DNA of 63,585 bases, counting the filler, from Craspedostauros australis (lineage: Eukaryota), in the NCBI GenBank assembly GCA_030167865.1. It is 19 parts of 19 records of this genome, joined end to end, with 100 filler letters (N's around TTAATTAATTAA, not from the genome) between each part and the next. Parts side by side here need not be neighbours in the genome. Positions count along the whole stretch, not along the records: positions 23,350 to 32,360 come from JALAGF010001140.1; 18 more parts are not named here. One strand, 5' to 3'. The position numbers were made by a program, and so were the translations under genes. The notes below the pieces were generated by a model. It worked only from the letters and a program-made list of their open reading frames with translations, was not told the DNA's origin and searched no databases. Below are positions 6,630 to 56,385 of the stretch, piece by piece; within the stretch, counting starts at the first letter, position 1, and each line of letters starts with the position of its first letter.

Positions 6630-7262
6630 GGGTGATGTCGTGATGCTGCAATGATGTGATGTCGCAATGTTGGGATGCTGCAATGTTGCGATGCTGTGAT
6701 GCTGCGATGTTGTGATGATGTGATGTTGCAATGCTGCGATACTATGATACTGTGATGATGTGATGCTGCCATGTCACAATGTTGTGATGTTGGGATGCTG
6801 TGATGCTGCAATGTTGCGATGCTGCGATGTTGGGATGCTGTGATCTTGCGATGCTGCGATGCTGTGATGGTGTGATGCTGCAATGATGTGATGCTGCAAT
6901 GTTGGGATGCTGTGATGCCGAGATGCTGCAATGCTGTGATACTGCAATCTTGCAATGCTGTGATGCTGTGATGCTGCGATGCCGCAATGCTGTGACGCTG
7001 CAATGTTGGGATGCTGTGATGCTGCGATGTTGGGATGCTGTGACGCTGCGATGATGTGATGCTGCGATGTTGGGATGCTGTGATGCTGCGATCTTGCAAT
7101 GCTGTGACGCTGCGATGTTGGGATGCTGTGATGCCGCGATGCTGTGATGTTGGGATGCTGCAATGTTGTGATGCTGCGATGCTGCGATGTTGTGATGTAG
7201 CCATCCTGTGATGTTGTGATGCTGTGATGCTCACATGATGCGATGCTCACATGCTGTGATGC
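6630..7262. repeat. 8-bp tandem repeat, consensus GATGCTG(C/T), about 75-80 degenerate units
   Basis: Directly visible units GATGCTGT, GATGCTGC, AATGCTGT and GATGTTGG. Confidence 0.95.
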
Positions 7263-12439: not shown

Positions 12440-13300
12440 CAGCAGCAGCACACTCGAGCAACTTCCACCCCAGCGACGGACAGCATCATCAATGCGAACA
12501 ACTCACCAAACCAACAGCAGCAGCACCATGCTCGATCAACTTCCACTCCAGCGACGGACAGCATCATCAATACAAACAAGTCACCAAACCAACGGCACCG
12601 TGCTCGATCAACTTCCACCCCAGCAACGGACAGCATCATCAATGCTAACAAGTCACCAAACCAACAGCACCGTGCTCGATCAACTTCCACCCCAGTGATG
12701 GACAGCATCATCAATGCAAACAAGTCACCAAACTCACGGCACTGTGCTCAATCAACTTCCACCCCAGCAACGGACAGCATCATCAATGCGAACAACTCAC
12801 CAAACCAACAGCACCGTGCTCGATCAACTTCCACTTCAGTGACAGACAGCATCATCAATGCAAACAACTCACCAAACCAACGGCAGCATGCTCGATCAAA
12901 TTCCACTCTGGTGACAGACAGCATCATCAATGCAAACAACTCACCAAACCAACGGCACCGTGCTCGATCAACTTCCACCCCAGCAACGGACAGCATCATC
13001 AATGCGCGCAACTCACCAAACCAACGGCATCATGCTTGATCAACTTCCACTCCAGTGACAGACAGCATCATCAATGCGAACAACTCACCAAACCAACGGC
13101 ACCGTGCTCGATCAACTTCCATCCCAGTGATGGACAGCATCATCAATGCGAACAACTCACCAAACCAACAGCAGCAGCACCGTGCTCGATCAACTTCCAC
13201 CCCAGCGACGGACAGCATCATCAATGCGAACAACTCACCAAACCAACGGCACCGTGCTCAATCAACTTCCACTCCGGTGACAGACAGCATCATCAATGCG
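12440..13300 (+). repeat. 72-bp minisatellite, about 12 copies, reading as 24-aa repeats DSIINANNSPNQRHRARSTSTPAT
   Basis: Twelve DSIIN units counted. Length variants are multiples of 3. In-frame TGA stops at 13037-13039 and upstream at 12371-12373. Confidence 0.92.
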
Positions 13301-13961
13301 AGCACCTACGGGCAGGGTGTCAGCACTGGCGCATTCAGCATGCATAATGCAACACAAGACCCAAATCCACAGCCAGCCACAGCACCTGCCAATGGTGACA
13401 TCCATCAAGTGTCCCCGAGTCCACCTCGACATATTTCAGTTGCGCCAAACCAATCCTTGATTGGTGTTGCCACTGGCCTCGGTGTATGCCTCAACAGTGG
13501 CNNNNNNNNNNNNNNNNNNNNNNNNNNNNNNNNNNNNNNNNNNNNNNNNNNNNNNNNNNNNNNNNNNNNNNNNNNNNNNNNNNNNNNNNNNNNNNNNNNN
13601 NNNNNNNNNNNNNNNNNNNNNNNNNNNNNNNNNNNNNNNNNNNNNNNNNNNNNNNNNNNNNNNNNNNNNNNNNNNNNNCCTTCGCAGACTCTCCATGACA
13701 ACAACGCCTCTGGAATCAAAACTATGCCGATGAAGTGGGACCTTCTGCCTTGGCGTACAGCCAAATTCTCTGTCTCTGTCAGCGCTGCACAGCGGCTTTG
13801 CCACAAGCTCATGGTGGCTGAGGTTCTTCAGATTCGTGCTCGTGCAGTACTCAACACCAAGNNNNNNNNNNNNNNNNNNNNNNNNNNNNNNNNNNNNNNN
13901 NNNNNTTAATTAATTAANNNNNNNNNNNNNNNNNNNNNNNNNNNNNNNNNNNNNNNNNNNN

Positions 13962-18806: not shown

Positions 18807-19111
18807 TGTAACTACATGTGCGGAGAGCAAGGTACTGTATTGACTGTCTACTCTGTTGCACTGAATCAAGTGCATCAGTGCAGGGTCTCGCCAAGTTGTG
18901 TGGCATCGTTTCTTCACCCTACTAACACCAATAAGCTAACTCATAATAACGGACAAGGATTAGCTACAAAGCACTCTACTTCTCATCGTTACAAGTTATA
19001 ACTATTCAAACAGCACACCTCTCTTGAACTGCATCACACGGCTATCCCGAAGCCGGCAGATTCACGAGGCATTCTCCACCGATTCGCGACGCCTACGCAC
19101 GAATCCTAACT
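18807..19111 (+). repeat. Probable LTR, copy 2 (305 bp)
   Basis: Same length as, and about 99% identical to, 17081-17385. Confidence 0.7.
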
Positions 19112-19523
19112 CCAATTCACAATCTTTGACATTTCCGATCATAACTCAAGACAAGCTCGTTCGGTTGCACGAGCCCAACAGGGAAGGAGAAGACCACCTG
19201 ATTCGGCAACAAGTGGGCCGTACACCACAACAGTAGTAGCACAGCCATGCGATATGTGGAACAAAGGTCGACGGGTGGAACGGCAACGAGGTGGGGAGAA
19301 CAAGCTTCATCGGGACAAGTCGGAGCAAGAAGGCTTGCATGGGCAGTTGCCCAAACTCCTCGTTCGCGTGAACAACCATGAAACAAGACTTTCTCACAAT
19401 CTGTCGCCACGATACATTCAATTGCGTGACAAGGCAGCGCAACGCAAAGTAGCAAAACGAAATCGCGAACAGAGGTCACAAATCGAATCAAACCAAATGA
19501 AACCAAGCCACACAATCAGCAAC

Positions 19524-22500
19524 ATGGGTGCAGCAGAAGCCATGAGTGAGATCTTCGAAGCGGCTAGCGAGAGTCAAAGCCAGACCTTTGGGATAGATGA
19601 AGTCAGCGACTCGCAGATTGCCGAGGCTAATGTGACGCGCGCCGAGGACAGCACCGTTACACATGTTGAAGACGATGACAAGAGAGCGGAGATCGCTGCC
19701 AAAGAATCCACCTACGTTCGGTATTCCAAGGGCGTTGTGATCCTGGTGCTGGCATGTGCAACCGCCATCGTCGGTTACTTTACGTACTTTTTGACACACA
19801 GGGAAGAGGAGGAGGATTTTGATACTGAGGTGAGCATCCATCTACATGTGGTGTGGTTGCACTGTGATGATTCTGCAATGCTTGATTGTGCGCATGCTCG
19901 GCAATCACCCAAATCGCACAAGGGCACAGCCCTGCTCCATTCCATTCCGTACCACCAACTGTCATGTCTCACTGCTCCAAAACCTTCCCTTCACCATCAT
20001 TTTGCCCCACCTCAAACCCACCCTTGCTATGCTGCTGCTGCTATCACCATCATCCGCTACCACGCATACGCAGTTCGAGAACTATGCCGCTGAGATCATC
20101 GACCTCTCCGTCATCCAAGCAAGGGACATCTTCGATACGCTGGCAACGCTCACAGTCTCCATCACCTCGTTCGCGATGGCCTCCGAGCAAGAGTGGCCTT
20201 TCGTCGTCATCCCAGACTTTTTCTACCGTACTGAGAAGATGCTGCAGCTGTCGCCTTCCTTCGCTGTTGGCTTTCAGCCCATCGTTCCTCCGGACCAACG
20301 GGCTAGATGGGAACTCTTTTCACAGCAGAAGGCAGGATGGCTCAGCGATCCATTTCCAAAGAGCCTTGCCTACCTTGAAGAAAACCGTCCCACATTCGCG
20401 CTGCCTTACATCTGGGATGGAAGGGCAACTACAGACACTGGAATCCCATTGCCGTCACCACCAACTGAGTTCGGCTACTACACCCCCGTCTGGCAGGGCT
20501 CTCCGCCAAGCCCGGTTTCAAACTACGATACAATGAGCATCGGCGAGACCTACAGAGAACAGTTGGACAAGATGGTGGTGGAAGATATCTCTATTATGGG
20601 TGATGCGAGTATCGTCAACAACGCCGAGGCGATCTTGGCGGACAGCGTCATCCTGGATCCAATACACAAGACCCTTGAAGAAGGATCAGAGATTGTTGGT
20701 TTCCTTACCGCCATCGTGCCCTGGAGCCTCTACTTCGACAATGTGCTCCCTGAAGGCACGCCACCGCTGGATGTCGTCGTTCGCGAATCCTGCGGACGCG
20801 CCTACACGTTTCGGGTGGAGGGTCCGAAGGCAACCTACCTCGACAACCAAGATCTGCATGACCGCAAGTACTCGTCCAAGCACCACACTGGCGACTTCAA
20901 CGCCGTGTCTGCGCTGCAAACCAGCCAAAAATGCAAGTTCTCGATCGATGTCTACCCAACGAGAGAATTCGAGGACTCTTTCTATACAAACAGGCCCATC
21001 ACGTACACAATCGGTGCTGTGGTGATCTTCATTGCCACTTCGCTTGTGTTCATCATGTACGACTGCATCGTGCAAATGCGACAGAAGAAGGTCCTCACCT
21101 CCGCCCGAAAGACCGACGCCATTGTCAGTTCGCTGTTCCCAGAAGGGGTGCGAGACCGACTGATGGAGGAGGCCAACGAAGAAAACCATGCAGCAGCTGC
21201 GTCGAAGAATCCATTCGGAATTAGATCGCATTTGGCACACAAGCCCAATCCCCTTGGCACCGACAGTTTCCACCGGCCGAATTCGAAGCCGATTGCTGAT
21301 CTGGTAAGTTCGTCGAATGTTGCAGGATGTGAACAGTGCATCGTATTGTGAATCATATTCGAGTGTGTATGCGTACGAGTATGGGCGTGTAATGCTATGC
21401 ATCATCAGACTCACACTAAACGTTCAATGACAACGCTGTCCTGTTTCATGAACTTTGCCCCAACACGGCTCTGCGTCTATCTCATCTCCGCATGGTTCGC
21501 ACCTGCGCCCTCACCGCTTATTGCCATCTGTGCACACTTCTCCAGTTCCCCAACGTCACCGTCCTCTTCGCCGACATCGTTGGGTTCACTGCGTGGTCAA
21601 GCGTGCGAGAACCAACCCAAGTATTCACCTTGCTGGAACACATCTACGGAAGCTTCGATGCCATCGCCAAGCGACGTGGAATCTTCAAAGTCGAGACCAT
21701 CGGCGATTGCTACGTGGCAGCCTCGGGACTTCCCAAACCACGAAAGGATCATGCCAAGGCCATGGTCCTCTTTGCTCGCGATTGCCTCGAAGAGATGAAC
21801 CTCGCGGTTCACAAGCTCGAAGTCGTCCTTGGACCAGAAACTGCGGAGCTGGCCATGAGAATCGGCTTGCATTCCGGCCCCGTCACCGCTGGTGTTCTCC
21901 GAGGTGAAAAGTCTCGATTCCAGTTGTTTGGTGACACAGTCAACACCGCCAGTCGGATTGAGACATCCGGCATGTCAAACCGTATCCACATATCCACGGA
22001 TACAGCCAATGAGCTCATTCAGGCTGGCAAAGGCATTTGGGTGAAGCCACGAAAAGAGATGATGACCCTCAAGGGCAAGGGCGAGGTGCAAACATACTTT
22101 GTCGACATATCTCAGATTGATGGTTCGATGCTGGGATCCAGCAAGTATGAAGGCTCCTCAGATGGCGATGCTAACATCAACACCCGCAACAGCAACGCCA
22201 GTGGCAGCAGCAACAAGATCCCAAGCCTGTCGCAACACGCGGGAGAACAGGAAGGATGCTTAGAATCACGGTCGAGGCACACCGAAAGTCGCAAACAACA
22301 GCGTCTCATCGATTGGAACGCCGAGGTGCTGCAAGGTCTGCTCAAGCAGGTGGTCGCAGTCAGAAAGCCCGATGCAACTGGAACAACAACGGCACTTCCT
22401 GTCGAAGAATCACATGATGCCAAACGAGAACAGACGAGCACTCTCGATGAATTCACCGAGATCATCAAGCTGCCAGATGCTGCCGCCGTGTTCCAATGCG

Positions 22501-23249
22501 ATCCTGCCAACATCGAGCTGAGCCCCAACGTCGTTCGCCAGCTCCAGGACTACGTTGCACAGATCGCAAGGATGTACAAGCCCAATCCCTTCCATTCGTT
22601 CGAGCATGCATCCCACGTCGTCCAGTCCGTCAACAAGCTCATGGCACGTGTTGTGACGCCATCCGACTCCATTGACTATACCGAGCTCGCCTACAAGCCA
22701 GCACAGAACACGAGCGCCAACATGCACAAGTTCACATACGGCATCACCTCCGATCCTTTGATTCTCTTCGCCTGCGCCTTCTCCGCCTTGATCCACGACG
22801 TTGATCACAGCGGTCTCCCCAACGCCGTCCTGGCCGAGGAGGACCATCCGTTGGCGCAGATGTACAGGAACAAGAGCATCGCAGAGCAGAACTCCGTCGA
22901 TCTGGCATGGAAGCTGCTGCAGCTCCCCAAGTACAACGACTTCCGCAGATGCATCTACCAGACACAGGACGAACTGAGGCGATTCCGCCAGCTCGTGGTC
23001 AACGCCGTCATGGCGACGGACATCATGGACAAGGACCTCAACATGCTGCGCAAGAAGCGCTGGGACAGAGCCTTCGAATCCAGCACCGGTGATGAAGCAG
23101 ACACCAAGGAAGATAGCGACCGCAAGGCCACGATCGTGATCGAGCATCTCATCCAGGCATCCGACGTGGCTCACACCATGCAGCACTGGCATGTCTACCT
23201 CAAATGGAACGAGCGATTGTTCCATGAGATGTATCGGGGATACAAGGAG
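19524..23249 (+). CDS. Receptor-type class III nucleotide cyclase / class I phosphodiesterase fusion, 3'-partial; exons 19524-19829, 20074-21303, 21546->23249
   Basis: TM1, a CHASE-like extracellular region, TM2, cyclase (LFADIVGFT, KVETIGDCY, RFQLFGDTVNTASR) and PDE (NPFHSFEHASHV, LIHDVDH, ATDI, ASDVAH). GT-AG introns at 19830-20073 and 21304-21545 join the frames correctly. The start ATG is a best guess. Confidence 0.93.
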
Positions 23250-25389
23250 NNNNNNNNNNNNNNNNNNNNNNNNNNNNNNNNNNNNNNNNNNNNTTAATTA
23301 ATTAANNNNNNNNNNNNNNNNNNNNNNNNNNNNNNNNNNNNNNNNNNNNAAGTGCGTATGAGAGAATAGCGGGTGAACGATGCACATATACACGTACATC
23401 TTGACGTATACTCACATGTACATCTCGACAAACGGTGGAGGTGATCTCGGTGCTTCCAAGGGCGCGAAATTGTTCCTGGAGGCCCAACACGATCTACCAG
23501 ATGTCGAACGCGAGGTAAATCTGGAACAATGCGATCGACATCTAGCGGTAGTGATCTTGCAGCGACAGACGTGGCTGGATGAGCCGAGTTCTGTGACGAT
23601 TGAGACGGTGAAAGCCGATCGCTTTCGTTCCACTCGTTTGGTGGATTGATGTGGGCTCACCGGGCGCTTGTCGACGAGCTGCTCATGCTGTGGAAGATGC
23701 TGTTGTTCAAGGAGGTTGGAGATTTCTGGTTGTCTGACACGTTTTGCATTCACAGCTTACATGGTAGTATCGTACGTAGTCGTAGCTATCTCGCTCATCC
23801 CTCAAGGGGATCGTTTCAAGCATGTCCAGCGATGACTGATTGAACGAATACTCACCATCGCAGGCAAATTCATTCATGTTGGCGGCATTGTTGCAGTGAG
23901 CTATTGTAGTTGTAAACAACGGCATGCACCGTTTGGAGCTGCTCGAGGGTGACTTCATGACTCCCATGAGGATAGTGAAGACGGAGTCGACCAAGGAAGA
24001 GAGGGGGTGCCTCCAGAGGCTGTGGTGCCATCGGGACTGACAAGGATGATCATTCCGTGAAGCACCAGAGTCCACCAAGCTGACGCTTGTCTCTCTCTCT
24101 TGCATCGTTCTTGGCTGATCATGCTGTTGCTGTTGGTGTTGCTCTTGTTAGTGCTGTGGGTGCTATGCATGATATTCATTGATTTTCTGAGTTGCTTGCG
24201 TCTGAGTTGTTGGTGATGCTGATGCAGATGCTGATTTGTGAGAGGAGGACTGACGGGAATGAAGAGACTTGAGGATCTCGCACGATGAGGACGCCACAAG
24301 ATGGATGGGATTCATTGCCAATGCTGAGAGTAGCATCCATATACATTTGAACACCCTGGCACGATCGTTTGGATGTTGCGCAGGCGTTCGCCACGAGAAA
24401 TCGATCTTGTTCGGCATCTCCAGGGATGTCGCAGGTTCTCAACTACAAAAGCACCTCCTGTTGTGGAGGGACCATTTTGTGTTGTTGTTGGAAGTATCCG
24501 TGGATGTTGGTGCTCTTGTCTATCGATGGCTCAGGGGACAACCACTGTGGCAATATGAGTGATGGAATGCTGGAGTATCGGCATATGGAAACAGGGATCA
24601 TCCTATCCCTCCATCATCAGGAGCGCCGATGACTCGCTGGTCAAACTTGTTGGGAACACGATCGTTCAATCCACCGCCTTCATGCGTACTCGTAGTAGTA
24701 CAATGCATATTCCAGGTGCGGTTCTCAGGCAACCATGTTGCCGATTGGACTCCTTGGGGGATATGCGTACATCATGACGTGCGATGGTTGCAATTGAGAT
24801 TGTGACCATCTTGGTGCTCCCTCCATCGCGTCATCGCTGTTGGCGTCATCATCACTTTCGTGGTTGTTTCGGGTTGACGATCAGTCCTTCTCATCTGAAC
24901 ACCTTTCTGACGTGTCCTTCTCATGAAAGAAGCTAATAAAGTACTTCATTGACACACAGAATTCGTGGAATTGGGAACATCTCTGCACGCGCAAAAGTGG
25001 TGAAGCGAGAATCGACGATTCCCATTTGTGGTGTTCTCGCGTTCGCAACAGCGATCTTGTGGGGGTGTGTTGTGTTCTGTTCCTCCTTCTCGTTGTTGTG
25101 TGCACTGTTCGTGGTCAGCAAAAGGAAGGATCCGCACTCTCCAAACACCGCGGTTACCCTCTCCCAAACCAGGGGTGCGATCAAGAGAGGGAGACAGAGA
25201 GACGAGGAGAGAAACGGGAGAACATTGAAACGAGGCAACCGCACACACCGCTCAACACCATACTCGAACACATCAACAACAGACATGTCATGGGTACCTC
25301 GAAAAGCACGCTTCCTCAAAAGGCAATCCAACGCCAATCGTTCAACGTCCAACGTCAATCGTCCAGCAACCATCGACCATCCTCTCAAA

Positions 25390-27009
25390 ATGCCGAGTGT
25401 TACTAACCAACAACTCATTGATGCTGCCAGGGCAGGTGACTTGTGGGTGTTGAAGGAATGGAAGAAACAGAACAAGACGCAGAATGAAGGAGGTGATGTC
25501 AACAAGGTTACAGGCTGGGATGGTTGGATTCCCCTTCATCAGGCATGCCTGTGTGGCCAGCTGGGGTGTGTGAACTATCGCATCGAATCAGGTGGGGCGA
25601 ACATCAACTGTAAAACCAAAAATGGCGACACTCCCCTTCATAAAGCTTGCTCCAACGGCCACCTGGAGTGTGTGAAGTACCTCATCGAATCATGTGAGGC
25701 AGACATCAACTGCAAAAACAACAATGGTTCCACTCCCCTTCATCTGGCATGCAACAACGGCCACCTGGAGTGTGCCAAGTACCTCATCGAATCATGCAGG
25801 GCTGACATCAACTGCAAAGACAACAATGGTGACACTCCCCTTCATCAGGCGTGCCACAGCAGCCACCTGGAGTGTGTGAAGTACCTCATCGAATCAGGTG
25901 AGGCGGACATCAACGTCGAAAACAACGTTGGATCCACTCCTCTTCATTGGGCATGCTCCAAAGGCCACCTGGAGTATGTGAAGTACCTCATCGAATCATG
26001 TGAGGCGAACATCAACTGCAAAACCATCTATGGTGACACTCCTCTTCATCGAGCATGCCACAACGGCCAGCTGGAGTGTGTCAAGTACCTCATTGAATCA
26101 TGTGAGGCGAACATCAACTGCGAAGACAAATATGGTTGGACTCCCCTTCATCGGGCATGCCAATTTGGCCAGCTGGAGTGTGCGAAGTACCTCATCGAAT
26201 CAGGTGAGGCAAACATCAACTGCGAAAACAACTATGGAAACACTCCCCTTCATCGGGCATGCCAATTTGGCCAGCTGGAGTGTGTGAAGTACCTCATCGA
26301 ATCAGGTGAGGCGAACATCAACTGCAAAACCAACGATGGATCCACTCCTCTTCATCGGGCATGCCACAACGGCCACCTGGAGTGTGTGAAGTACCTCATC
26401 GAATCATGGGGGGCCGACGCCAACTGCAAAACCAACAACGGTTGGACTCCCCTTCATTGGGCATGCCACAACGGCAAGCTGGAGTGTGTGAAGTACCTCA
26501 TCGAATCAGGTGGGGCCGACGCCAACCACAAAGACAACGATGGTTCCACTCCCCTTCATCGGGCATGCTCTGAGGGCCATTCTGAATGCGTGGAGTACCT
26601 CATCGCATCAGCCAATGCCGATATCGACATCCAAAACAATAACAACAAAACCCCCCTTGATGTGATTGGGACAAACAATCAAATCAACGTGATGAGATCG
26701 ATCATCCCTGGTCTCAGTCACCGCAGCTCGGAACTGCGACAGCAGTTGAAAGAGAACGAGCAGGAGAATGAGCAACTGCGGCAGCAGTTGGAACGGGAGG
26801 AGGAAGAAAAGAAACAGAAGGCACAAGAGAATGAACAACTGCAGCAACAATTGGAACATCAGCTGAAGCGGAAGGAAGAAGAGAATGAACATTTGCGACA
26901 ACAGTTGAGACAGCAGTTGAAGCGAAAGAAGAAAGAGAATGAACACAAACACAGTAGCCACAAGAGGACCAGCATCAGCATTGGAGAAGACCGGCTCAGA
27001 TCCGTCTAA
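25390..27009 (+). CDS. Ankyrin-repeat protein (11 near-identical 34-aa repeats) with a coiled coil
   Basis: G.TPLH.AC..G.LECVKYLIES repeats at a 102-bp period (25522-26643), followed by a Q/E/K-rich heptad region. Confidence 0.92.
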   Translation: MPSVTNQQLIDAARAGDLWVLKEWKKQNKTQNEGGDVNKVTGWDGWIPLHQACLCGQLGCVNYRIESGGANINCKTKNGDTPLHKACSNGHLECVKYLIESCEADINCKNNNGSTPLHLACNNGHLECAKYLIESCRADINCKDNNGDTPLHQACHSSHLECVKYLIESGEADINVENNVGSTPLHWACSKGHLEYVKYLIESCEANINCKTIYGDTPLHRACHNGQLECVKYLIESCEANINCEDKYGWTPLHRACQFGQLECAKYLIESGEANINCENNYGNTPLHRACQFGQLECVKYLIESGEANINCKTNDGSTPLHRACHNGHLECVKYLIESWGADANCKTNNGWTPLHWACHNGKLECVKYLIESGGADANHKDNDGSTPLHRACSEGHSECVEYLIASANADIDIQNNNNKTPLDVIGTNNQINVMRSIIPGLSHRSSELRQQLKENEQENEQLRQQLEREEEEKKQKAQENEQLQQQLEHQLKRKEEENEHLRQQLRQQLKRKKKENEHKHSSHKRTSISIGEDRLRSV

Positions 27010-27909
27010 ACCGAGAACAGGGCAGACAACATCTTCTTGTGTGGGCAGGACGACCAACAAGCAATCAAGGCAAACTCCAGAGTCCTCATGGCCACTGTTC
27101 CATCCATGCAGACACTGATCAACTCTGGAGTCCAAAATCAATGCGCTCACAATGGTGCTCAAGATAGAACTGAACCCATCCAAACAACCATCCCTCTTCC
27201 CAACCTTCAACCAAAACACGTCCGATACGTCCTCCAATGCATCTACACAGGCGAGATATCCTTCGACGACAACACTCATGATGGCAACGCCAATGCAGAT
27301 GCCTCTCACCAGCCAGCTCCCACCCTCAATGGACAGGATGATCTGCAACAGCTGATCCTTGTGGCCAACGAGTTCGGCTTCTGGCGACTCAAGCTTATTC
27401 TTGAAGCGGAGTTAACCTGCAAGCATCTCACAGAGGACACCATGATAGATGTGTTGATATTCTCCCATCAACACAACTGTGTGGTGTTGAAGGATGCGGC
27501 AATGAGAATGGCAGCTGAAAGTGAGAAAGATATGTTCACTCATCTAGATTTAAGTAACCTGATTCTACATCAGCAACTGATGAGAGGTATTCATGTCCTC
27601 TGCAGTGGGAGAGTGGAGGGTGATGGTATTGATGATGAGTACAGTCGTATGTCCATGATGGAGCTGTACAAAGTCATGGATGAGGATGAGGGTACAGCAC
27701 AAATGGATTCATGCATGGATCGGGCGACATTAGTGGACCTCATCCGCTCTATGAGTACCAATCGATCCAAAATGATTGAGACGGACGGCGCTGCCACTGA
27801 TGACTTGAATCCAGACCGCACCTCGGGCCATGACATGCCTTATCATTGCTGTTGGCGCTGCAATTTCCCATGTCCCAAGCCCATCTTTACTCCGGAGCAA
27901 TTGGTTTGA
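27010..27909 (+). pseudogene. BTB/POZ domain continuing in frame from the ankyrin ORF after one TAA
   Basis: LRSV*TENRADNIFLCG..IKANSRVL..VLQCIYTGEI..LILVANEF..LKLILE..LKDAAM is a BTB plus helical tail pattern in the same frame as 25390. Confidence 0.75.
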
Positions 27910-28393
27910 TATCTTCCTTTCTGATGTCGCTGAGCAATGCGGCACGTTGGAGATCGCTGTTCGTTGCCGCTTGTCATTCATCATCAGCATCATTGGCATC
28001 ATCATCGTCTCTTGCAATGGTCGCCTTCGTTGATTCTGGTTGGCGTACCATATTTTTGCGGAGCCGCTGCTTGCTTGACTATTTCACTGCTTCATTTCTT
28101 CATTGCTTGGCGGAAGACGTCCCAGCGTTGGCTGATACCTCCATCAATGCAAACATAGTCATGCCATTTCATCTCTCTTGCTCTCTCTCTCTTTCTCTCT
28201 TTGTGTTGATGTTGTTTGATGGATCGTGGTCGCAAAATCGAAGATTCGTTGTTTTGGGTGGTGTCAAGAATTGTTGGCGTGTTTGGTGAGTACTCGTCTG
28301 TCTGCCATCCGTAGTTCATTCAACCAGTGACGCACACGCTGACGACCAACATCACCACTGCGTTGTCTGCATTCGACGCAACTCTGTTCGACG

Positions 28394-30790
28394 ATGGTGA
28401 TGGCGATGGCAACCACTCCAATGAAGTCGCATCCCTTCACAATTGGTACCACCACCAACAACACAAGCACAAACAATCAGACAATCAGACAAGATGATGA
28501 GACATCGACATCCAAGAGGATCTGTGGGAAGGCTCGCCAGTTGCTCCGCATCTTGACCCACCCGTTGTACAACTATGAGTATGGAACCTCCCTTGAGTAT
28601 GATCTACTCTGGGAGTTGCCACAGCAAAGCGTCCAGCCTGACACTCTGTTCGAACCTTCGTCCAGCCCGTGCGGTCATGTGATCATGACGATCGAAGTTG
28701 CTGGAAGAGGACGGTGTCAAACTGATAGCAGAGAAACAAACGGAGACCAAGCAACCGCAACAGGCCAACACGAAATCGAAGGCGAGCAAGCCCACAAGCG
28801 TCGCCAAAGAGGCCAAAGCAGCTGCAAAATCAGGTCGTCGTGCGAGTGTCAGCACAGATACACCAAGCAGCGCCAACAGAAGTACAGCCAAAGATGCGAA
28901 AGCTTCGGCTGTGAAACGATCACATGCGAAGAGTCTGGACATGCTCAACATGCAAGCTCACGAGATGTCATTCAGCTCCCTTGATCCCAGCAAGTTCATC
29001 AACAACGAACCGATACCGGTGCCAAACACCCCAGGTGGACTCAGCTTCGCCACAGCCCCAGCACTTGGCGCAACCCGCGAATGGAGCAGTCAAGACAAGA
29101 CGAAGCTTGCCCAGAGTCGGAGACGCAGGCCAAGGACACAAACGAATTCCAACGGAACGACCAGCAGCGCCACATCGAGGAGCAACAGTTTGGAATTCTC
29201 TCAGGACGGACACCACATGCCAGGCACATCAGATACACCAGTCACAACAGGTTCGATGAGTGCAGCCAGCACCCTGGCTGTATCTCTAGTTGCGACAACG
29301 GAGACGTCTCGCAGCAAGAGCCTGGAGTCACTGACCAATCTGCCAAGTCTCCACAACGATGACGACAGCGCCGGCGTTGCGACAAGTGCTGCTGCAACGA
29401 ACGGTGGGAGAAGCTCTGTGGCCCCTGTCACGCCTGGAGGTCGGAGCGCGGCATCTACACCAGCCTCCTTTCCCTTCAGCCACATACATGAAAGAGGCAA
29501 CAGTCTTCGTCGTTGAACAAGCGCAGGTCGACGTTGGCAAGCATCCTCAAGATCAAATCATCATCATTACGTGAAGTATCGTTGACCAGTCCTCCCAAAT
29601 CGAAGCAACGGCCATCTCTCGAATCCCGACCATTGCAATTGGCCGATCTTGCCTTGACTGAAGCATCCGCAAAGGCGCCATCATCGCCGTCGCCACCGTC
29701 ATCATCATCACAGTCCAAATCCAAACTCAATCTGCAACAGTTCGAACGCAACCACGGAGGTGTCTCGGCCACAACCCCAAGCCCATCCAGTCCTGGAGCC
29801 TTGAGTTTGGGAATCGAATTGCAATCGAGCAAGAAGGAACGAGGGGCTCCTTCTCGCAACAGATCTGCATGCAGTTCGTTGCGCTCAAGTGAAGACTCAA
29901 AGCAACGACGTTCACGCGAATGAAGCACGGATGCTCTGCGCGATGAGATCAAGGAAAGGATCTCCAAGGTGCTTGGCGATGGGGCCCCGACGTCACCACT
30001 CCAGCAAAACAAGAGACGTGTCATCGCCATTGATATTACCATCGAGATCACCGTCTCCACGGCATCGGCGGAGAAGCGCACTGCACACCAGCGGCAAGCT
30101 GCATTCAACATCGTCAAGATCAAAGAGTGTGGAGCATTCGACATCATTGAGTCATCGTCGCGACAGAGAAATTCACACATCCTCCTCTGGAAGAAGCTGC
30201 CGCTCGCCATCGGCGCGGAGTCGTCGAAGCTCGTCCGATCGCGGCCGCAGAAGAACTGCGCAAGTATCGATGGACTCATCGCCATCATCACGGCGACAAC
30301 GAACATCTGGCAGTTCGGATGATATGAACGCAGCCTCACGTTCACGCGAAACCAACTCAAATGCGCATTCCACCGGTACTGTTTTGCAACGGCGCAAGGG
30401 CTCACCTTCCCGAAAGCATGACCGAGGAAGTTCACGAAGACCAAATCAATGTGGCCATAGCCAATCGACACCACGTGGCGAAGATGGGCGAAGATCAGCG
30501 AAGGAGGTTCTCCGATGAACGATCACCATCGGCGCGACAACGAAACAGATCAAGAGGATATCGAAATTACAGCGTCGAACGGCATAGCAATGAGAGAGAT
30601 GAAGATGGACGGCATTGCAACAAACATTCGTCATCACGCGGGGCCCTTCAATCAAATCGCCGTGGACGAAGCAGATCGTCAACTCGCGATGCTGTCTACC
30701 ATGAGAAGATGTCTGGCACAAAGCCACTGCAACTCACATAATAGAAAGTGGTCAGGAGAAAGAGCGCGTCTCAGTGCCACCATCCCTTGA
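28394..30790 (+). pseudogene. Fragmented Ser/Arg-rich low-complexity gene
   Basis: A chain of overlapping + strand ORFs of similar composition alternates between two frames, with an internal TGA at 29921-29923. No domain recognised. Confidence 0.4.
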
Positions 30791-32460
30791 TGAATGGTAC
30801 CAAAACTCCCACCCCGTGATGCATCACGACACGATGGGATGGAATGAGATGGAGGGGCCGCTCCGTANNNNNNNNNNNNNNNNNNNNNNNNNNNNNNNNN
30901 NNNNNNNNNNNATGTAATACACCTACGAATAAACTGTACTTCTCTACGTATGTTTGGAACAGTACCGCATACACTATATCTGCTTGTGCAATAGAACACT
31001 GTGATGAAGGCACCGGATGTTTCAAGAGATTGAAGGGCTGGATACTGCTCCCACACTGCCTCCGCCTTGTCTACGACTAGTCTGGTGCGCCCTCTGCGGT
31101 ACAAACGCACACAAGGATGTTGCCGATGTCATTCACAAGCAGATTGGACGTCCGTGGTTCCATCCGCACTCTGCCATGAGCATCGTTGTTGGTTCGTTGC
31201 GCAGACAAAGGACGAATGGCAGCAGCATTATCACAAGCCGTGCGGTCGTCACCATGCCGCCGGATTCACACCCAGTGCACTCTACTCCAAGTCACACTGC
31301 CAAGCAGATTCAAAGCGATAGTGCCGATGCCAGCCGATCCAAGTTTCTGGAAGAGACGATCTACGAAGAACACATGGCGAGCAAGGCAGAGAGAAATGGT
31401 GAGAAGCCGCAAGGAGCATGGTTGCTGTGCGGTTCCATCGACCGTCTCGTATCACGCTATCGTTCTCATCTCACCAGGAGTTGCACTCCCGCCATTGTGC
31501 CAGAACTGCAGTCGAGACCCTCACCAAGTCTCAGGAGGAGCCATCACTCACGGTTACAGCAACAAATGCCAGGGTCACCATCCATTCCAATCTTCGAAGC
31601 GACCAGAGTCAGCGTGGCGGAAAGACAGGAACCAACGAGCTAGCGCAGTCCAAACATCCAACCAGCTTGGCGAGCAAAAGAAGAGACCAACGAATCAACC
31701 AACGAACCAACGAGCAACCCCATGCAGAGTGCGAATATTGTATTGCGGATCATGGCTGACACAGAGATCCATTTTGGTACAAGAATCACACGGCCAGCAA
31801 TCCATGGTCCATGGATACCGTACACCTACATATCCTCCTTTGTGGTGCTCCCAACTTCGTTCGTGAGGCGGATGTTCCTGTCGATCACCTCTGTTGAGCA
31901 TCGATGCTCTGGAAGTCACGAGCCAAGACGGCGGCACTCATGCCTATGGATAGAATGCGCATGGTGTTGTGTGTTGGTGGTCCGTGTGGCAGGAACAGTG
32001 GAGGCGGCACAGTATCACTCTGCTTGTTGATTGCTGAACGTGTCAACTCATCCCAATACGCAATGTGGTGTTGGTTTGATGTTGAGGACTCTTGTTGCCT
32101 GTGCGGATGGTGATTGTTGCAATGCGGTGGGATGGCAACCAGCCAAATCCAAATGAGATGGGTTGCAACCAACGAAGGCAATCACATTGGTGGCTTCATC
32201 GGCGGCTTCATGGTTGTTCGAGGCATTGGCTCACACCTCAAGTTGATGCTTGCGATGGCAGGCGGACGAGGGTCAGTGGTCTTGCAGATGCCACGATGAC
32301 GCAAGCAAGCGTGGGCCATGGTGCACATGGTGGTGGCGGCGGTGGTGGCGACGATGACAGNNNNNNNNNNNNNNNNNNNNNNNNNNNNNNNNNNNNNNNN
32401 NNNNTTAATTAATTAANNNNNNNNNNNNNNNNNNNNNNNNNNNNNNNNNNNNNNNNNNNN

Positions 32461-34005: not shown

Positions 34006-36264
34006 CTATTCAAACAATGCCAACATCCTCCCATCGCGACCTTCCTCTTGTGCACATTGCAACGGCGTATCACCACTCTTGTTCTGAATGTGCGGATCGA
34101 TCATCTCCAACGTCATCAGATACTCAACCACTTCCAAATACTCGCCTTTCACAGCACAGTACAGCACCGTATCTCCCTCATCATTCGCCATGTTCACATC
34201 CACATCCACCTTGTTCGATTCGACCAACAGTTTCATCTTCTCAGCTCGTATCTTGTGATCATCACTCTCGCTCTCACTTTCACACCCATGCTCAGATACA
34301 TTTCTATCTGCTCCTTTGCAAATACAGTGCAATGCTGTATCACCGCTGCTGTTTCGCAACGTGGCATCCACTGAGTCACATCCGATCAGATTCCGAAGGA
34401 CAGAAACATCGCCCTTCTTGCATGCGAGATGGAGGAGCGTGGTGCCATCATGATTCTGAATGTTCGCGATTGCTGTGACATTCTCCAACAGCTGTTGCAT
34501 GATGTCCACATCACCAACGGTATCACCATCATCAACATCATCATGGTTGTGCTTGTTGGAGAGATCGATGAGGTTGGTTGTGGCAATGATTTGATGTTGA
34601 ATGAAATCGAAGACGTGACGAAGCCTGGCGGTGTGATTGAAGGTGAAGAGCAAGCCCCTGTTGAATGCAATGTGAAGAGGTGTGTCACCATGTTTGTTTT
34701 GGACGTTGAGGCTTGCATCGGTCTTGCGTGACTGGAGCAATTCCTTGATGAAGCTTCGCCTATTTCTCAAGCAAGCAATGTGGAGAGGCGTATTCCCATG
34801 GTTGTTTTGGATATCGTTGGTGTTGTCGATGTCTGTATGGATGCCAATATCGTCGTTGTTGATGTTGAGCTCGTTGAAGTCCACCAAGCACCAAACGACA
34901 CGCCTGGACAGTGATGGTTGACCGCAAGCGATGTGGAGAGGCGTATTCCCATCGTTGTTCTGGGTGCGAAGCATGATGCTAGTGAGGGTACGATCATGAT
35001 TCATCAGATACTCAACCGCGTCGGGGGCCAGCCAATCCCTGAGAATGAGATGGAGCGGTGTATTCCCTTCGTTGTTTTGCATGCTCCCATTGGCGGTAGC
35101 GTTGGCATTGATGTTGCAGTTGCCGTTGATACCAAGCATGCTGTTGATGTCGATACGATCCGTTTCCATCAGACACACAATCAAATCTCTTTCCACCCAT
35201 AGGCAGGCAAAATGTAGCAGCGAATTGCCATTGCAGTTTGGTCCAATCACCTCAGGACGAACATCGAGTTCATCTAAATCCAACAAATATGCGATCATTT
35301 CCTTGTTCCCACTGCGACAAGCGCTATGGAGTGGAGTGTCCCCATTGTTGTTTCGGACGTTGACATCGATATCAACACCAATCCCATCCGACTCCATCAT
35401 GTACCTGACTATATCAATGTGACCGAACAGACATGCGACATGCAAAGGTGTGGAACCTTCCTTGTCCTGTTTGTTGATGTAAGCGTCAACGTTGATATGA
35501 CTCGATTGCACCAAGTATTCCAGCACATCGGGTCGTTCGCTCTGGCATGCGTGATGGATCAATGTGGAACCGTCATTGCCTTCCATGGTGATGGACACTT
35601 GGCCGGATTCCAACAAATACTTCGCGGTCTCAGCGTTGCTGTTTCCGCAGGCACAATGAAGCACAGTCTGGCCTTTGTTGTCTTTGATATTGACATCCAC
35701 GTCGATTCGATCGGATTCCATCAGATACTCAACAATGGCTTTGTGTCCATTCCAGCCAGCAAGGCAGAGTGGTGTTTGACCACTGTTGGATTTGATGTTG
35801 GCATCCACCTCGATTTCATTCGATTCCACCAAGTATTCAACGATGCTCTTGTGCCCATTCGAGCAAGCATGATGAAATGGCGTGCGCCCTTGCTTGTTTT
35901 GGAGATTGACATCCACATCGATTCGATCAGACTCCACCAGATACTTTACGATCGCCCTGGTTCCACGACAACATGCACGATGAAATACAGTTTCGCCGTC
36001 CTCGTCTGCCGTATTGGAAGGGATGACCGCTCCGTCCGCATACGATTCAACCAGATCTTGAAGCTCTGTCAAGTTATGATTGATGCATGCATTCTCCACC
36101 TGTCTGATCCACTCACAGACGGCCTCGTCACTGCTTATAGTGCATTGATTCCATTGTGACGAAAGAGATGTATGGTTGGGAAGTCGAGGTTGAATTGGAC
36201 CAGAGGAGGAAAGCACCAGCACCAGCATCAGCACCAGTGTGAGTGACAAGTACAAGCACAACAA
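34006..36264 (-). CDS. Ankyrin-repeat protein with about 14 divergent repeats; ends possibly frameshifted
   Basis: Repeated G.TPLH.AC motifs through the 752-aa ORF. The start is uncertain, and the last repeat degenerates near 34060. Confidence 0.85.
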   Translation of the reverse strand: MLCLYLSLTLVLMLVLVLSSSGPIQPRLPNHTSLSSQWNQCTISSDEAVCEWIRQVENACINHNLTELQDLVESYADGAVIPSNTADEDGETVFHRACCRGTRAIVKYLVESDRIDVDVNLQNKQGRTPFHHACSNGHKSIVEYLVESNEIEVDANIKSNSGQTPLCLAGWNGHKAIVEYLMESDRIDVDVNIKDNKGQTVLHCACGNSNAETAKYLLESGQVSITMEGNDGSTLIHHACQSERPDVLEYLVQSSHINVDAYINKQDKEGSTPLHVACLFGHIDIVRYMMESDGIGVDIDVNVRNNNGDTPLHSACRSGNKEMIAYLLDLDELDVRPEVIGPNCNGNSLLHFACLWVERDLIVCLMETDRIDINSMLGINGNCNINANATANGSMQNNEGNTPLHLILRDWLAPDAVEYLMNHDRTLTSIMLRTQNNDGNTPLHIACGQPSLSRRVVWCLVDFNELNINNDDIGIHTDIDNTNDIQNNHGNTPLHIACLRNRRSFIKELLQSRKTDASLNVQNKHGDTPLHIAFNRGLLFTFNHTARLRHVFDFIQHQIIATTNLIDLSNKHNHDDVDDGDTVGDVDIMQQLLENVTAIANIQNHDGTTLLHLACKKGDVSVLRNLIGCDSVDATLRNSSGDTALHCICKGADRNVSEHGCESESESDDHKIRAEKMKLLVESNKVDVDVNMANDEGDTVLYCAVKGEYLEVVEYLMTLEMIDPHIQNKSGDTPLQCAQEEGRDGRMLALFE

Positions 36265-37593
36265 GGACGCTCATACACGCAGTCGCATTTGTGCACGCCT
36301 CGCAAGAGATGCGGCCAAACCAATCCAAACCAAACCAAGACAACTCACGCTTCCAATTGACCGCTGGACATGTTGATCGTTGTTCGTGTGATGCTTTTGA
36401 TCCTTTGTATGCTGCTGGTTGCGTGGGTGGCGTCGATTGGATGAATCACTCTCCGATTGTGACAAGAAGTGTACCGTCCAGTACCAATGATTGTCTTCTG
36501 TTTCCTGTCTGTGTGGCGAGCTGTTTTGACAGCAGAGACGAGATGACGAGCTGATCTGAGTGTTGTCGCATTCACCACACGACAACAATCCACCGTGATG
36601 TTGGTCGTGTGGGTGTCGCCACATCACCAACCATTCCTCATGCCATCTTTGGTGTCACGGCAAGAATGGAGACGACAGAATGGAATTCTCACATCATCAG
36701 AAGCACAGCCACCATTTCATGTCAGTTCTCGACACCGAAGAATCCGAACACTGACAAAGATCCAAAACAGAAGGACTCCTCGTTGGTGGTGTTGTCCGAT
36801 CCACACTGTACGTACATCTCCATCTCCATCTCCATTCGAATGGTCGCAGCCACCACCATCTAAAGCTCACTTCATGCTGCACGCTCCATCATCTGCTGTC
36901 TTCATACCATACGCATACGCATACGCATACGCATACTTGTGCGCCCAATCACTCAATCACTCAACCACTCAACCACTCAACCACTCAACGATTCAATCAC
37001 CATCTGGAACCAGTCAAGACAGGGATGAATCGAATGAGCAATGACATGTCGGTGGTTGGGATTGTTGACGCGCATCATGATGTTGCTGCCATGCAACACG
37101 GGCTTTGATGGGTGCAAAGGAGTGGCCAGCGGTTTCCATCCCCTCAGCAGCAGCACTGTCGGCAATGTTGCCAAGCCAGAGACATGGATCTGCACAACTC
37201 CGCCATCTTCAGGTTGCGGTGCGATTCTCCATGCTGGCGGCATCCTCCTGCGACTCCGAGCTGATAACAGAGGAAGGACACAAGCAGATCGATTCAGATG
37301 CGCAACTTCCACTCGAATCCGTGTACAGCGACGTTCTGTGGGAGAAGAGGATGGTGCACCATCACCCCAGGCGCATGATCCACTCATCCAAGGAACGATG
37401 GAGGTGGGAGATGCACCAATCCAACTGAAAGAAGATGGACTTTGGAATGACGAAATGAGGATGAGTACCAGTTTGGATGTACAGAAACAACTGGCCGACG
37501 ACAGAAGCGCACTTCACCACAGCGCGCAATATTGGAGAGCAATCGACAACGAGTACATCAATCAGTTGTACAAACAGCGTGGCATCAACGGAG

Positions 37594-40220: not shown

Positions 40221-41918
40221 TCACATGCAAAGCGCGGTGATCCGCAACCGGTCCGCGAGTGGCCACTGCAGATACGCCGTAGGCATATCCTCGTTAGCGC
40301 GCTGTCGTCGCCAGCGCCCGTGTTCGGAGACCTCGAGTTTGGTGGCCGCTCGCATACATCCCGGCCGCTTCCGGGAAACGTGGGTGCGTCCCCCTCGCCG
40401 ATACATGTGAAAAGAGTAGAACCGCGTGGGAATGGGTACTTGCTCCGCGCCGATGGCCGACCGTAGAAAGGTGTCGCCCCGCTGTTGTTGCTCCAGCAAG
40501 GATGGATACACGAACGTCGTGCGGTAGAATTGCGACGTCCACGGTTGCCCCGAGGGATGGTGCGCCACGAGGTCGGTTGGGACACAGTTATCCCGATCCG
40601 CGCGTGCGCGAAGCATCCAGTCGCCGAGACTGAGGCCGGACGAGGTGCGGAAAGCGATGACGACGTCGGCCTGCCGACTGCGATCGGACTTCGTCTGCAT
40701 GGCCAGGCGTAGTAGTACTGCGCCCGTGTTCGGTGGGAGGTCGTTGTTGCTGGCGTCGCGTGGGTTGAGAATGGTGACATCCGACCACGCGATACCGAAG
40801 GTTTCCGCAGCTCGTAGCCATCCCAACCAGCCGATGAGGTTGATGATGCCCGCCATAGCCGCTGTCCGCCGCTGTTGTGGCGTGACTGCATGTTGGTATT
40901 GGTGGAGGAAACTTCGGTCCATAAAGTGGACGTGACGAGAAAGCAAGGCAGCTGAGGGCCGCGAGTCTTCACCGAGCCGTGTGCGCATGCCCTGTGTCAG
41001 CATCGCATATCCGAGATGGTCGGTAGGGAGGCATGCGTCGACGATGATGGGTCGTTGTTTGGCGTCGAGCATGGCACGTTCGGGGTGCGAGATGCACATG
41101 TTCCACGCGCCAAAGGCCGATGCAGCGCTGCGTAGCCCCCGTACGGTGCTGAATTTGATGGTCTGGTCGTCGAGTGCGTTCTTGCGAGAGGGCGCCTGTG
41201 TGGCGTAGTGCTCCTGCGCCCACATGATCGGGATCGTGTCGGAGCAGGGTGGCGCCTGGATGTCGGGTGGTTGCATAGTCGGGATGCCGTATTGCAGACC
41301 GAACTTGCGCAACACTTGAATCTTGCTGCTGTATGTAGTGAGTGTGCCGGCTGCCCAGTTGTGTGCCATGTCGATGATGCGCATGCGCTCCAAGCGGAGG
41401 AGGTGATAATCGGTGGGGCTGGGGACCAGCTCCCGCTGGAGATGCACTCGAACCGTGCATGCTTCACAGACAAAGAGACCCAGGATGCCGAGGTTGGGTG
41501 GCAGCACCAGGCCCTTATGATTGCGGAGACGCGTGCGGAAGGGAGGTCCGACTCGACAGCACAGCTTGTGGTATCGGGTATAACATGGCTGGTAGGAGGC
41601 ACCGCCGTGAGTGAACCCAATGTCGGCGAAGTGACACTGGTGCGCGGCAGTGCGCTGATTGATACTCCTAGCACAGCCCGTGCAAACGCTCGGCGATCCG
41701 TTGGTGATGCCGCCGATTCCGGGAGCGGGGAGCAAAGTCCAATCTGGGAGGTGTGAGGGAACGAGTGTGTGGAGAGACGCGGAGGAGGAGGTTAGGAATG
41801 TTGAGAGGAGAAGAAGAAGAGAGAGACAGGTCGTCATTGGTGAACACTCCGACCCGGATGAGATGACGTGAGAGTCGGACGAAAGTGCGTTGGAGCACTC
41901 TGGGGACGAGGATGACAA
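40221..41918 (-). CDS. Tyrosine recombinase of a DIRS/Ngaro-like retrotransposon, with an N-terminal Cys/His finger
   Basis: Catalytic set LRAAE, HMYRRGG, HGRW and MPTAY. It overlaps the RNase H ORF in another frame. The true start is uncertain. Confidence 0.9.
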   Translation of the reverse strand: MSSSSPECSNALSSDSHVISSGSECSPMTTCLSLLLLLSTFLTSSSASLHTLVPSHLPDWTLLPAPGIGGITNGSPSVCTGCARSINQRTAAHQCHFADIGFTHGGASYQPCYTRYHKLCCRVGPPFRTRLRNHKGLVLPPNLGILGLFVCEACTVRVHLQRELVPSPTDYHLLRLERMRIIDMAHNWAAGTLTTYSSKIQVLRKFGLQYGIPTMQPPDIQAPPCSDTIPIMWAQEHYATQAPSRKNALDDQTIKFSTVRGLRSAASAFGAWNMCISHPERAMLDAKQRPIIVDACLPTDHLGYAMLTQGMRTRLGEDSRPSAALLSRHVHFMDRSFLHQYQHAVTPQQRRTAAMAGIINLIGWLGWLRAAETFGIAWSDVTILNPRDASNNDLPPNTGAVLLRLAMQTKSDRSRQADVVIAFRTSSGLSLGDWMLRARADRDNCVPTDLVAHHPSGQPWTSQFYRTTFVYPSLLEQQQRGDTFLRSAIGAEQVPIPTRFYSFHMYRRGGRTHVSRKRPGCMRAATKLEVSEHGRWRRQRANEDMPTAYLQWPLADRLRITALCM

Positions 41919-42555
41919 ATCCAGTATCCAATGGCTGCTCCGCCCAGCACCCCAGTAGGAAGTAGATCAGTTGATAGGCCAGTTCTGGCGGCGGTGCCCA
42001 CAGGGTGATGCAGTTCATGCAGCTCTCTGGGTTCCACGGGCGGTCCCATCGACGTAGCAGTACAGTCGTGAGGGTGTCGGGGAAGGCGAGGGACGCGATC
42101 CGGGAGACATGCCGTTGTTGGAGTGGTGCCGGGGCCAGACATGCGGATAGGATCTGCGATGAGGTCGGTCTCTGATGGGCCGCATTGATCCAGATCCCAC
42201 GGCTGAGTCCGTCAGTCCCTTCTGTGATGATGGCGGTGCCAGGGATGTGGATGACTTGAAGGTGACACGACAGGTGAAGCTCGAGCTGCTTGATCTTTCG
42301 AACCATCTTGTGCAGTTCCGGTGATGTGGAAGTGCCTCCATCGACAACACAGTAGGTGCACATGTTGTCGGTGAAGTAGAAGAAGGTGGCGCCGAAGACG
42401 TCCATGGCAGATGCTGGGTTGTTGGCGACCTGCTGCAGAGTGCTGAGTAGGGTGCGTAGCTCCTTCCAGTTGGATGAGTGGCGTGTTGCCACGAGGGAGG
42501 ACCATGTGCCCATCCACATACATGAGGGTTGACTGGGGAAGAGGATGGTGCCACC
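41668..42555 (-). CDS. RNase H C-terminal part of the RT-RH ORF of the same YR retroelement, 5'-partial
   Basis: SSNWKELRTL, YFTDN and HIPG....TDGLSRG are DIRS-type RNase H motifs. Confidence 0.88.
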   Translation of the reverse strand, partial: GGTILFPSQPSCMWMGTWSSLVATRHSSNWKELRTLLSTLQQVANNPASAMDVFGATFFYFTDNMCTYCVVDGGTSTSPELHKMVRKIKQLELHLSCHLQVIHIPGTAIITEGTDGLSRGIWINAAHQRPTSSQILSACLAPAPLQQRHVSRIASLAFPDTLTTVLLRRWDRPWNPESCMNCITLWAPPPELAYQLIYFLLGCWAEQPLDTGFVILVPRVLQRTFVRLSRHLIRVGVFTNDDLSLSSSSPLNIPNLLLRVSPHTRSLTPPRLDFAPRSRNRRHHQRIAERLHGLC

Positions 42556-52511: not shown

Positions 52512-52613
52512 CTNNNNNNNNNNNNNNNNNNNNNNNNNNNNNNNNNNNNNNNNNNNNTTAATTAATTAANNNNNNNNNNNNNNNNNNNNNNNNNNNNNNN
52601 NNNNNNNNNNNNN

Positions 52614-55600: not shown

Positions 55601-56184
55601 AACGCATCGGACGCTACCTCCTCGGAACGAAAGACCAAGGCATCCAAGTCAAACGATCAGCAATCGGCTCCATGGACTGCTATGTCGACGCTGACTTTGC
55701 CGGAGTCTGGGGCAAGGAAGATCCTCAAGATCCCAACTCCGTCCGATCCCGCACTGGATTCATCATCACCCTTGGTAACATGCCCATCATTTGGAAATCA
55801 AAGATTCAGTCCGAAATCGCAATGTCAACACAAGAAGCAGAGTACATTGCACTCTCAACCGCAATGAGATCAGTCATACCTCTCAAGAACGCTCTCAAAC
55901 AACTCATGCACGCCTTCCACATCAAATCAACGGCAGAATCAGAACTGACCACCATCTTCGAGGATAACCAAGCTGCCATCACCTTAGCAACAACGAAGCC
56001 GCCGCGGATGACACCAAGATCAAAACACATCGCCATCAAATACCATTGGTTTCGATCTCACCTCAAGAAAGGATCCTTCGAAATCAAGTACATCGATTCA
56101 ACTCTTCAGAAAGCCGACATCATGACGAAGCCATTGGCGCGAGCCAAATTCGTGGCAGCCCGAAAGCTGATCATGGGTTGGTAA
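52614..56184 (+). mobile_element. Uninterrupted Ty1/copia (CoDi-II-like) pol: integrase, RT, RNase H; 5'-partial
   Basis: HHCC (HQRFGH..CQAC), DDE (SVD, HTD, GAAE), RT VYVDD, RNase H YVDADFAG/EAEY/EDN/ADIMTK. At least 1184 aa with no stop. Confidence 0.97.
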
Positions 56185-56285: not shown

Positions 56286-56385
56286 NNNNNNNNNNNNNNN
56301 NNNNNNNNNNNNNNNNNNNNNNNNNNNNNTTAATTAATTAANNNNNNNNNNNNNNNNNNNNNNNNNNNNNNNNNNNNNNNNNNNN

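Follow-up and report, generated by a model that had tools for sequence, protein, structure and literature searches.

We describe here a family of about 150 related ankyrin-repeat genes in the diatom Craspedostauros australis, starting from one member on contig JALAGF010001140.1 (C1140), which occupies positions 23350-32360 of a 63,585-nt stretch of assembly GCA_030167865.1 (the window, meaning the whole stretch of DNA that was analysed). Our preferred reading, to which we give a probability of about one half, is that the family forms a recombining, positively selected library of ankyrin binders, in which intact members would tag bound proteins for degradation while truncated members would only bind. 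The copy in the window has lost the use of its BTB domain: a premature TAA cuts off an in-frame, SPOP-like BTB-BACK region.

The window array comprises eleven in-frame units of 102 bp (34 aa), the first beginning at 25522 by reading-frame count, and Tandem Repeats Finder (TRF) places it at 25530-26611 with a period of 102 bp, 10.6 copies and 82% matches, so the eleven-unit array proposed in the initial annotation is real. The variable residues listed there are all correct: W/D/S/N after G, Q/K/L/W/R after H, LC, SN, NN, HS, SK, HN, QF and SE after AC, and TKN, DNN, TIY, DKY and TND in the beta-turn. A frame is indeed shared among the units, although "almost invariant" was slightly strong wording for it: units differ from one another at 9-38 of 102 nt, and the 30-mer quoted for the framework is exact in five of the eleven. 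Among the ten internal units, 21 of the 24 nt in eight variable codons vary, while 25 of the 78 remaining sites do. Codon by codon, the window's entropy profile agrees with one built from the other genes only (Spearman 0.86, p 9e-11), which argues that the pattern is not due to chance; it is a trait of the whole family and not of a single locus. The initial annotation had left out the coiled coil, stop and BTB domain downstream.

Across 142 arrays of 2-60 units each, 781 of 800 internal units are distinct, with 732 different five-position combinations among the 781. Entropy is highest at codons 10, 7, 2, 34 and 11 (2.7-3.8 bits), with codons 32, 13 and 33 next, and codons 33, 34, 2, 10 and 11 align with positions that vary between the R12 repeats of a designed ankyrin repeat protein (DARPin) of solved structure. 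The face residues are rich in N, D, Y, W, S, R and H, and proline makes up 0.2%. Counted from single-nucleotide codon changes in 320 nearest-neighbour pairs of units at most 8 nt apart, the ratio of nonsynonymous to synonymous change (omega) is 3.10 (confidence interval 2.70-3.63) at codons 2/7/10/11/34 and 2.43 (2.07-2.88) at codons 13/32/33, against 0.62 (0.54-0.71) in the framework. The dN/dS comparison that the initial annotation had suggested thus points to diversifying selection at the ankyrin binding-face codons, and positive selection at this predicted binding face is well supported.

The earlier impression that units are mosaics of each other is borne out by evidence of repeat shuffling. 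Linkage between sites falls with distance (r2 from 0.047 to 0.006; permutation p 0.006), and near-identical flanks stand beside unrelated arrays: one pair of genes is 99.2% identical over 601 nt upstream of arrays of six and seven units, and another 97.5% identical over 1384 nt downstream of arrays of four and five. Framework differences per 78 nt average 7.4 within genes and 8.6 between genes, so the homogenisation claimed for the framework holds mainly across the family and much less within an array. In 28% of cases a unit has its nearest neighbour within its own gene (chance level 1.8%); nine of the ten window units have theirs in a different gene, other genes offering many more candidates. 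The likeness within and between genes, taken with the near-identical flanks around unrelated arrays, indicates exchange both inside arrays and across the family. Four-gamete violations run at about 75% at all distances and cannot separate recombination from recurrent mutation. No two of the 142 arrays qualified as alleles by sharing 95% identity or more on both flanks, and variation in repeat number was seen between paralogues only. Units are contiguous at a spacing of 102 nt in one reading frame, and all eight N-free spacings that depart from 102 nt are multiples of 3.

A UniRef protein labelled Craspedostauros australis agrees with this genome at 100% over 481 aa. In the assembly (65.9 Mb in 6734 contigs), the N-terminal cap gave 157 matches to a 27-nt pattern, the BTB domain 153, and an 18-nt framework stretch 677 exact matches, each with a reversed control of zero. 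The states of the copies were followed in two samples that are biased in opposite directions and therefore leave the true intact fraction uncertain: of 107 cap-anchored loci, 17 are intact, 76 stop beyond an open array, ten run off the contig, two meet N gaps and two have a broken array, while the 40 BTB-anchored loci comprise 19 intact ones, 14 in which the array is severed from the BTB and seven that show no units in view. For frameshifts, only well-aligned stretches were counted. The 76 truncations fall into several classes: frameshifts at the junction account for 19, stops at one particular Gly codon for 15 and stops at the codon used in the window for 13, a further 13 lie in the coil and five nearby, and 11 are of other kinds. 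The truncated copies are scattered over a FastTree phylogeny of the BTB core. Flanking DNA has been duplicated along with the gene, and several contigs hold two copies. At the other extreme, one intact member (L066, C3870:17500-27400) carries 60 ankyrin units in a single open frame of 2444 aa.

The stop in the window copy is genuine. Many paralogues read through its position as one ankyrin-coil-BTB protein. The gene's sequence was found in a single sequencing run, X1, which is RNA by our guess and not by record, and whose cover is concentrated on the gene; parts without cover were given no weight. One X1 contig of 109 nt equals 26969-27077 with no difference and no gap, spanning the TAA, and the next best genomic match to this stretch is only 92% identical (among 40 of 155 candidates scored), from which we conclude that the stop is real and unspliced. 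An intron removing the stop was considered and rejected, given this exact unspliced contig and the absence of a GT..AG joint at the junction among 15 of 26 joints. The window copy is likely transcribed.

The pattern of rare changes indicates that BTB-less copies are not simply dead and that their arrays are kept open. In the arrays of truncated genes (419 units) there are no rare stops, against 11.8 expected when scaled to the rare synonymous changes of the same units (p 7e-6), and omega reaches 3.06 at variable codons, compared with 0.60 for the framework; in intact genes it is 2.3 at variable codons. The near-neutral rare framework replacements of truncated genes (pN/pS 0.98) speak against such a reading of these copies. 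The BTB core of truncated genes holds 16 stops, against 20.4 expected, with further lesions in 30 of 51 and a rare nonsynonymous to synonymous ratio (pN/pS) of 0.80. Intact BTBs have no stops against 8.3 expected.

Intact members are predicted, from sequence profiles and structural models, to be SPOP-type CUL3 adaptors. In an intact paralogue (L083), Pfam reports a BTB domain and a weak BACK_BPM_SPOP match; BTB followed by 3-box/BACK is present there and lies behind the stop in the window copy. The AlphaFold model of an intact paralogue's BTB domain has a predicted local distance difference test score (pLDDT) of 89.5, the best match of the modelled BTB-BACK is SPOP (Foldseek E 9e-7), superposition on 4j8z gives a VIA Z of 15.1 and a root-mean-square deviation of 2.4 over 170 residues, and a profile search also returns SPOP. 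Searches with the window BTB among longer proteins, and with a single BTB sequence against the PDB, gave no match. A search of 1.84 billion representatives gave 93 matches to the BTB, and its nearest relatives there are older ankyrin-BTB and MATH-BTB proteins; C. australis supplies most of those with a species name, and Stauroneis one. In the resulting tree, ankyrin-BTB proteins form a clade (100/99) inside diatom MATH-BTBs, and the window's family is a subclade of it (100/100). The tree is midpoint-rooted, skips one row (P0019), includes outgroup rows cut at doubtful anchors (P0033, P0049, P0053) and two rows called MATH by eye without a Pfam MATH match (P0006, P0020), and contains neither ABTB2 nor NPR1. 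Two of the older ankyrin-BTB genes, L136 and L137, form a tandem pair at C333:44428-51208. Pfam finds no MATH domain in the window protein or in L083, where ankyrin repeats stand instead. The genome has separate MATH genes (20 matches, four of which cluster on contig C4448) and a CUL3 gene. A complex prediction made without alignments paired the BTB with CUL3, for which the protein of another diatom (82% identical over the searched region) stood in; it scored 0.00 and speaks neither way. The initial annotation had likened the array to the repeat domains of fungal NOD-like receptors (NLRs); the resemblance in repeat evolution stands, but an NLR identity does not, since neither NACHT nor NB-ARC is detected by Pfam in the window protein, the frame downstream of it, four other open reading frames (ORFs) of the contig or intact L083, and a SPOP-type BTB-BACK is attached.

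These data are compatible with the following course of events. An ancestral MATH-BTB gene may have exchanged its MATH domain for ankyrin repeats, after which unequal crossover and short conversion tracts would move codons and units among genes, with the framework staying compatible while face residues reassort, and selection of the arms-race kind would favour new face residues. Intact proteins would dimerise through their BTB, recruit CUL3 and ubiquitinate the proteins they bind; truncated proteins might sequester or block targets, or act as decoys competing with intact paralogues, and truncated genes could also donate repeats. The targets are likely to be fast-evolving foreign proteins, which by analogy with known systems may come from viruses, parasites or bacteria. 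A more far-reaching version, which we regard as unlikely in its entirety, would make of the roughly 150 loci a natural DARPin-library immune system against viral or parasite targets, in which recombination that is still under way, and perhaps mitotic, would pass ankyrin codons and units between loci and so yield new binders, with a degrading ankyrin-BTB-CUL3 arm and a selected BTB-less arm that neutralises or acts as decoy.

Several observations weigh against a binder library coupled to degradation. BTB-less copies make up 76 of 107 cap-anchored loci and 14 of the 33 classifiable BTB-anchored ones, and since most sampled copies are without a BTB, degradation cannot be what most members do. The BTB of intact copies is only moderately constrained (rare pN/pS 0.57). 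SPOP reads M-E-E at its hydrophobic-x-Glu loop, and the loop glutamate, which we take to be a CUL3 contact, occurs in none of 112 family sequences, most of which read G-I-Q-H in a register that was set by eye and is uncertain. As for selection, the omega values are pair counts and not fits of a codon model, can be inflated by recombination, and refer to site sets partly picked from the data, and rare framework replacements in the repeats are close to neutral (pN/pS 0.95-0.98).

The absence of the loop glutamate also speaks for a binder library that works without CUL3, in which the BTB would dimerise arrays for avidity and be dispensable, binding alone being sufficient to neutralise. The loss of the BTB through several different junction lesions while arrays stay selected fits this view, and the coiled coil could stand in for the BTB as oligomeriser. 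We nevertheless judge it rather unlikely, as the entire BTB-3-box-BACK fold has been kept, intact copies are free of the stops expected by chance and the lineage descends from MATH-BTB adaptors. Quite unlikely, too, is a partner that is endogenous or conspecific, such as transposon proteins, selfish elements, or determinants of mating or self/non-self recognition. Sequence alone cannot identify the partner, several copia-type retroelements lie in the window, and fungal ankyrin, TPR and WD arrays of like signature are tied to allorecognition (PMC4986451); against this, about 150 loci with nearly all units unique would suggest many unrelated targets, exceeding a few self loci.

More doubtful is a largely neutral segmental expansion, with drift at exposed codons, truncated copies that are pseudogenes, and arrays kept open by conversion from a small number of functional genes. 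It would account for the co-duplication of flanks, for the nearly neutral decay of the BTB in truncated copies and for the near-neutrality of rare framework replacements, but drift predicts an omega of about 1 where 2.3-3.1 is observed, and conversion would erase rare synonymous changes equally, yet stops are missing from the truncated arrays. The in-frame spacings between units also tell against it, as does the fact that the likely RNA run contains the region around the stop of the window copy. Targeted hypermutation of the variable codons is very improbable: multi-nucleotide codon changes are concentrated there (216 at the top five codons and 31 at codons 13/32/33, against 43 in 26 framework codons), but old alleles moved by conversion account for them, stops and proline are nearly absent, and synonymous diversity is alike at the top five codons (0.17) and elsewhere (0.13), which argues against local hypermutation. 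That collapsed repeats were assembled into mosaic arrays is hardly credible in spite of the fragmented assembly and N gaps in some arrays, because the longest exact repeat is only 43 nt inside the window array and 83 nt in common with any other sampled array, X1 contigs match stretches of the window exactly, and mosaics cannot make 781 distinct in-frame units or codon-specific omega.

The degradation-coupled binder library can be set beside several known systems. With SPOP and the plant BPM proteins the family shares the BTB-3-box-BACK fold, a substrate module N-terminal to the BTB and, through diatom MATH-BTBs, its descent, but it has a variable ankyrin array and a coiled coil in place of MATH, lacks the M-x-E glutamate and includes many BTB-less members. 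Animal ABTB2 and plant NPR1, which are low-copy conserved genes, combine the same two domain types, although our tree, which does not contain them, places the diatom BTB with diatom MATH-BTBs. ABTB2 has been reported as a cullin-3 interactor (PMC12664368).

The family unites two signatures known separately, those of fast-evolving cullin adaptors and of recombining repeat arrays of fungal-NLR type. The MATH-BTB genes of rice have reportedly undergone birth-and-death expansion. In nematodes, F-box and MATH-BTB adaptors form large, lineage-specific expansions whose substrate-binding part is positively selected, and targeting of foreign proteins has been proposed (PMC4334554). As in these nematode and rice expansions, the diatom family is large, follows birth and death, and is selected in its substrate domain (omega 2.3) and not in its predicted cullin-binding domain (pN/pS 0.57); unlike them, it shuffles a modular repeat in arrays of 2-60 units instead of relying only on point mutation in a fixed domain, and its truncated binders are still under selection. 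The ankyrin, TPR and WD repeats of Podospora NLRs show high internal conservation and vary in number, with positive selection acting on the concave face of helix and hairpin, the selected sites of the ankyrin arrays lying on the inner helices and hairpin (PMC4986451). The diatom repeats are likewise highly similar and under positive selection at the binding face, but here a C-terminal BTB replaces the NOD and N-terminal effector domains, and about 150 loci exchange one repeat type. Also from a stramenopile are the ROCO-LRR and NB-ARC-TPR candidate receptors of Ectocarpus, which resemble the diatom family in birth-and-death evolution, diversifying selection on the concave face and repeat shuffling (PMC3341825). 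Each of their repeats has an exon of its own, whereas the diatom array is intron-free, is built from ankyrin units and lacks a GTPase or NB-ARC domain. In DARPin design, too, the framework is fixed and the face positions vary (PMC8683736), but DARPins are artificial and use 33-aa repeats, against natural units of 34 aa here.

In the literature covered, which left most subscription journals and all supplements beyond its scope, we found no description of this family. Diatoms are attacked by viruses and parasites, and to our knowledge few candidate recognition proteins have been proposed for them. The family offers a defined gene set for direct tests of intracellular recognition, in a species that is reportedly already in laboratory use; selection is seen on copies without the adaptor domain, and the 781 distinct ankyrin units, built on a single compatible framework, amount to a natural library. 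The word "ankyrin" is absent from the main text of two papers (PMC12159174 and PMC7335047), the supplements of which may list the family.

Table 1. Features of the window gene and its flanks, in window coordinates.
Feature	Coordinates	Strand	Evidence or remarks
5' untranslated region (UTR) intron, 80 nt, GT..AG	25287..25366	+	Joint 25286->25367 in an X1 contig that is only 85% alike and may derive from a paralogue
Start codon and N-terminal cap (MPSVTNQQL...), common to the family	25390..25521	+	Translation, paralogues
Eleven 102-bp ankyrin repeats	25522..26643	+	Hypervariable codons 2, 7, 10, 11, 34; less so 13, 32, 33
Degenerate C-terminal repeat, putative cap; end approximate	26644..26724	+	Translation; cap role inferred
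Q/E/K-rich predicted coiled coil; ends approximate	26725..26943	+	Coil inferred from composition
Premature TAA; protein ends at 539 aa	27007..27009	+	Q or H there in intact paralogues
SPOP-like BTB-BACK, in frame but untranslated	27010..27790	+	Pfam BTB E 9.7e-7
Deletion breakpoint, ~950 bp relative to many paralogues; 3' end of gene gone	27788..27794	+	
Downstream segment duplicated together with the gene	27788..29400		Up to ~30 of 106 sampled paralogue loci
Segment found upstream of other members	30912..32360		~27 of 106 sampled loci

The predicted coiled coil contains a 54-bp tandem repeat (26817-26945, TRF). At the deletion, blastn matches break at 27794/27788 and paralogues jump by ~950-1000 nt. 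An S/T/K-rich ORF without a Pfam match (28689-29516, plus strand) co-duplicates downstream of many members, among them the paralogue loci L072 and L110, and the sequence at the contig's other end suggests that a further family copy may lie beyond it, past 32360.

The window consists of separate contigs chained by N linkers, so its three ankyrin genes are on different contigs, and physical clustering of them was rejected on this ground. The two others mentioned in the initial annotation are present but are not neighbours of the array, and their repeats are more diverged: one, at 34006-36270 on the minus strand, encodes a long and diverged ankyrin protein whose units measure 108 bp (36 aa) and in which no BTB was matched, and the other is a fragment ending at 52513.

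Among the remaining features of the window, copia-type retroelement pieces (RVT_2, Pol_BBD) occupy 52570-56184, 56338-57489 and 57490-58938, the same protein stretch recurring on three adjacent short contigs that are probably redundant repeat contigs. A 581-aa ORF at 40221-41966 (minus strand) has no Pfam match; by eye it resembles a tyrosine recombinase of DIRS-type elements. A membrane guanylate/adenylate cyclase-phosphodiesterase fusion gene at 19110-23297 (plus strand) is cut by the contig end. Two simple arrays complete the picture: a 72-bp tandem array at 12453-13301, with 11.6 copies and 87% matches and open in several frames, and an array of 8-bp units of the GATGCTGT type that covers about 600 bp at 6634-7261.
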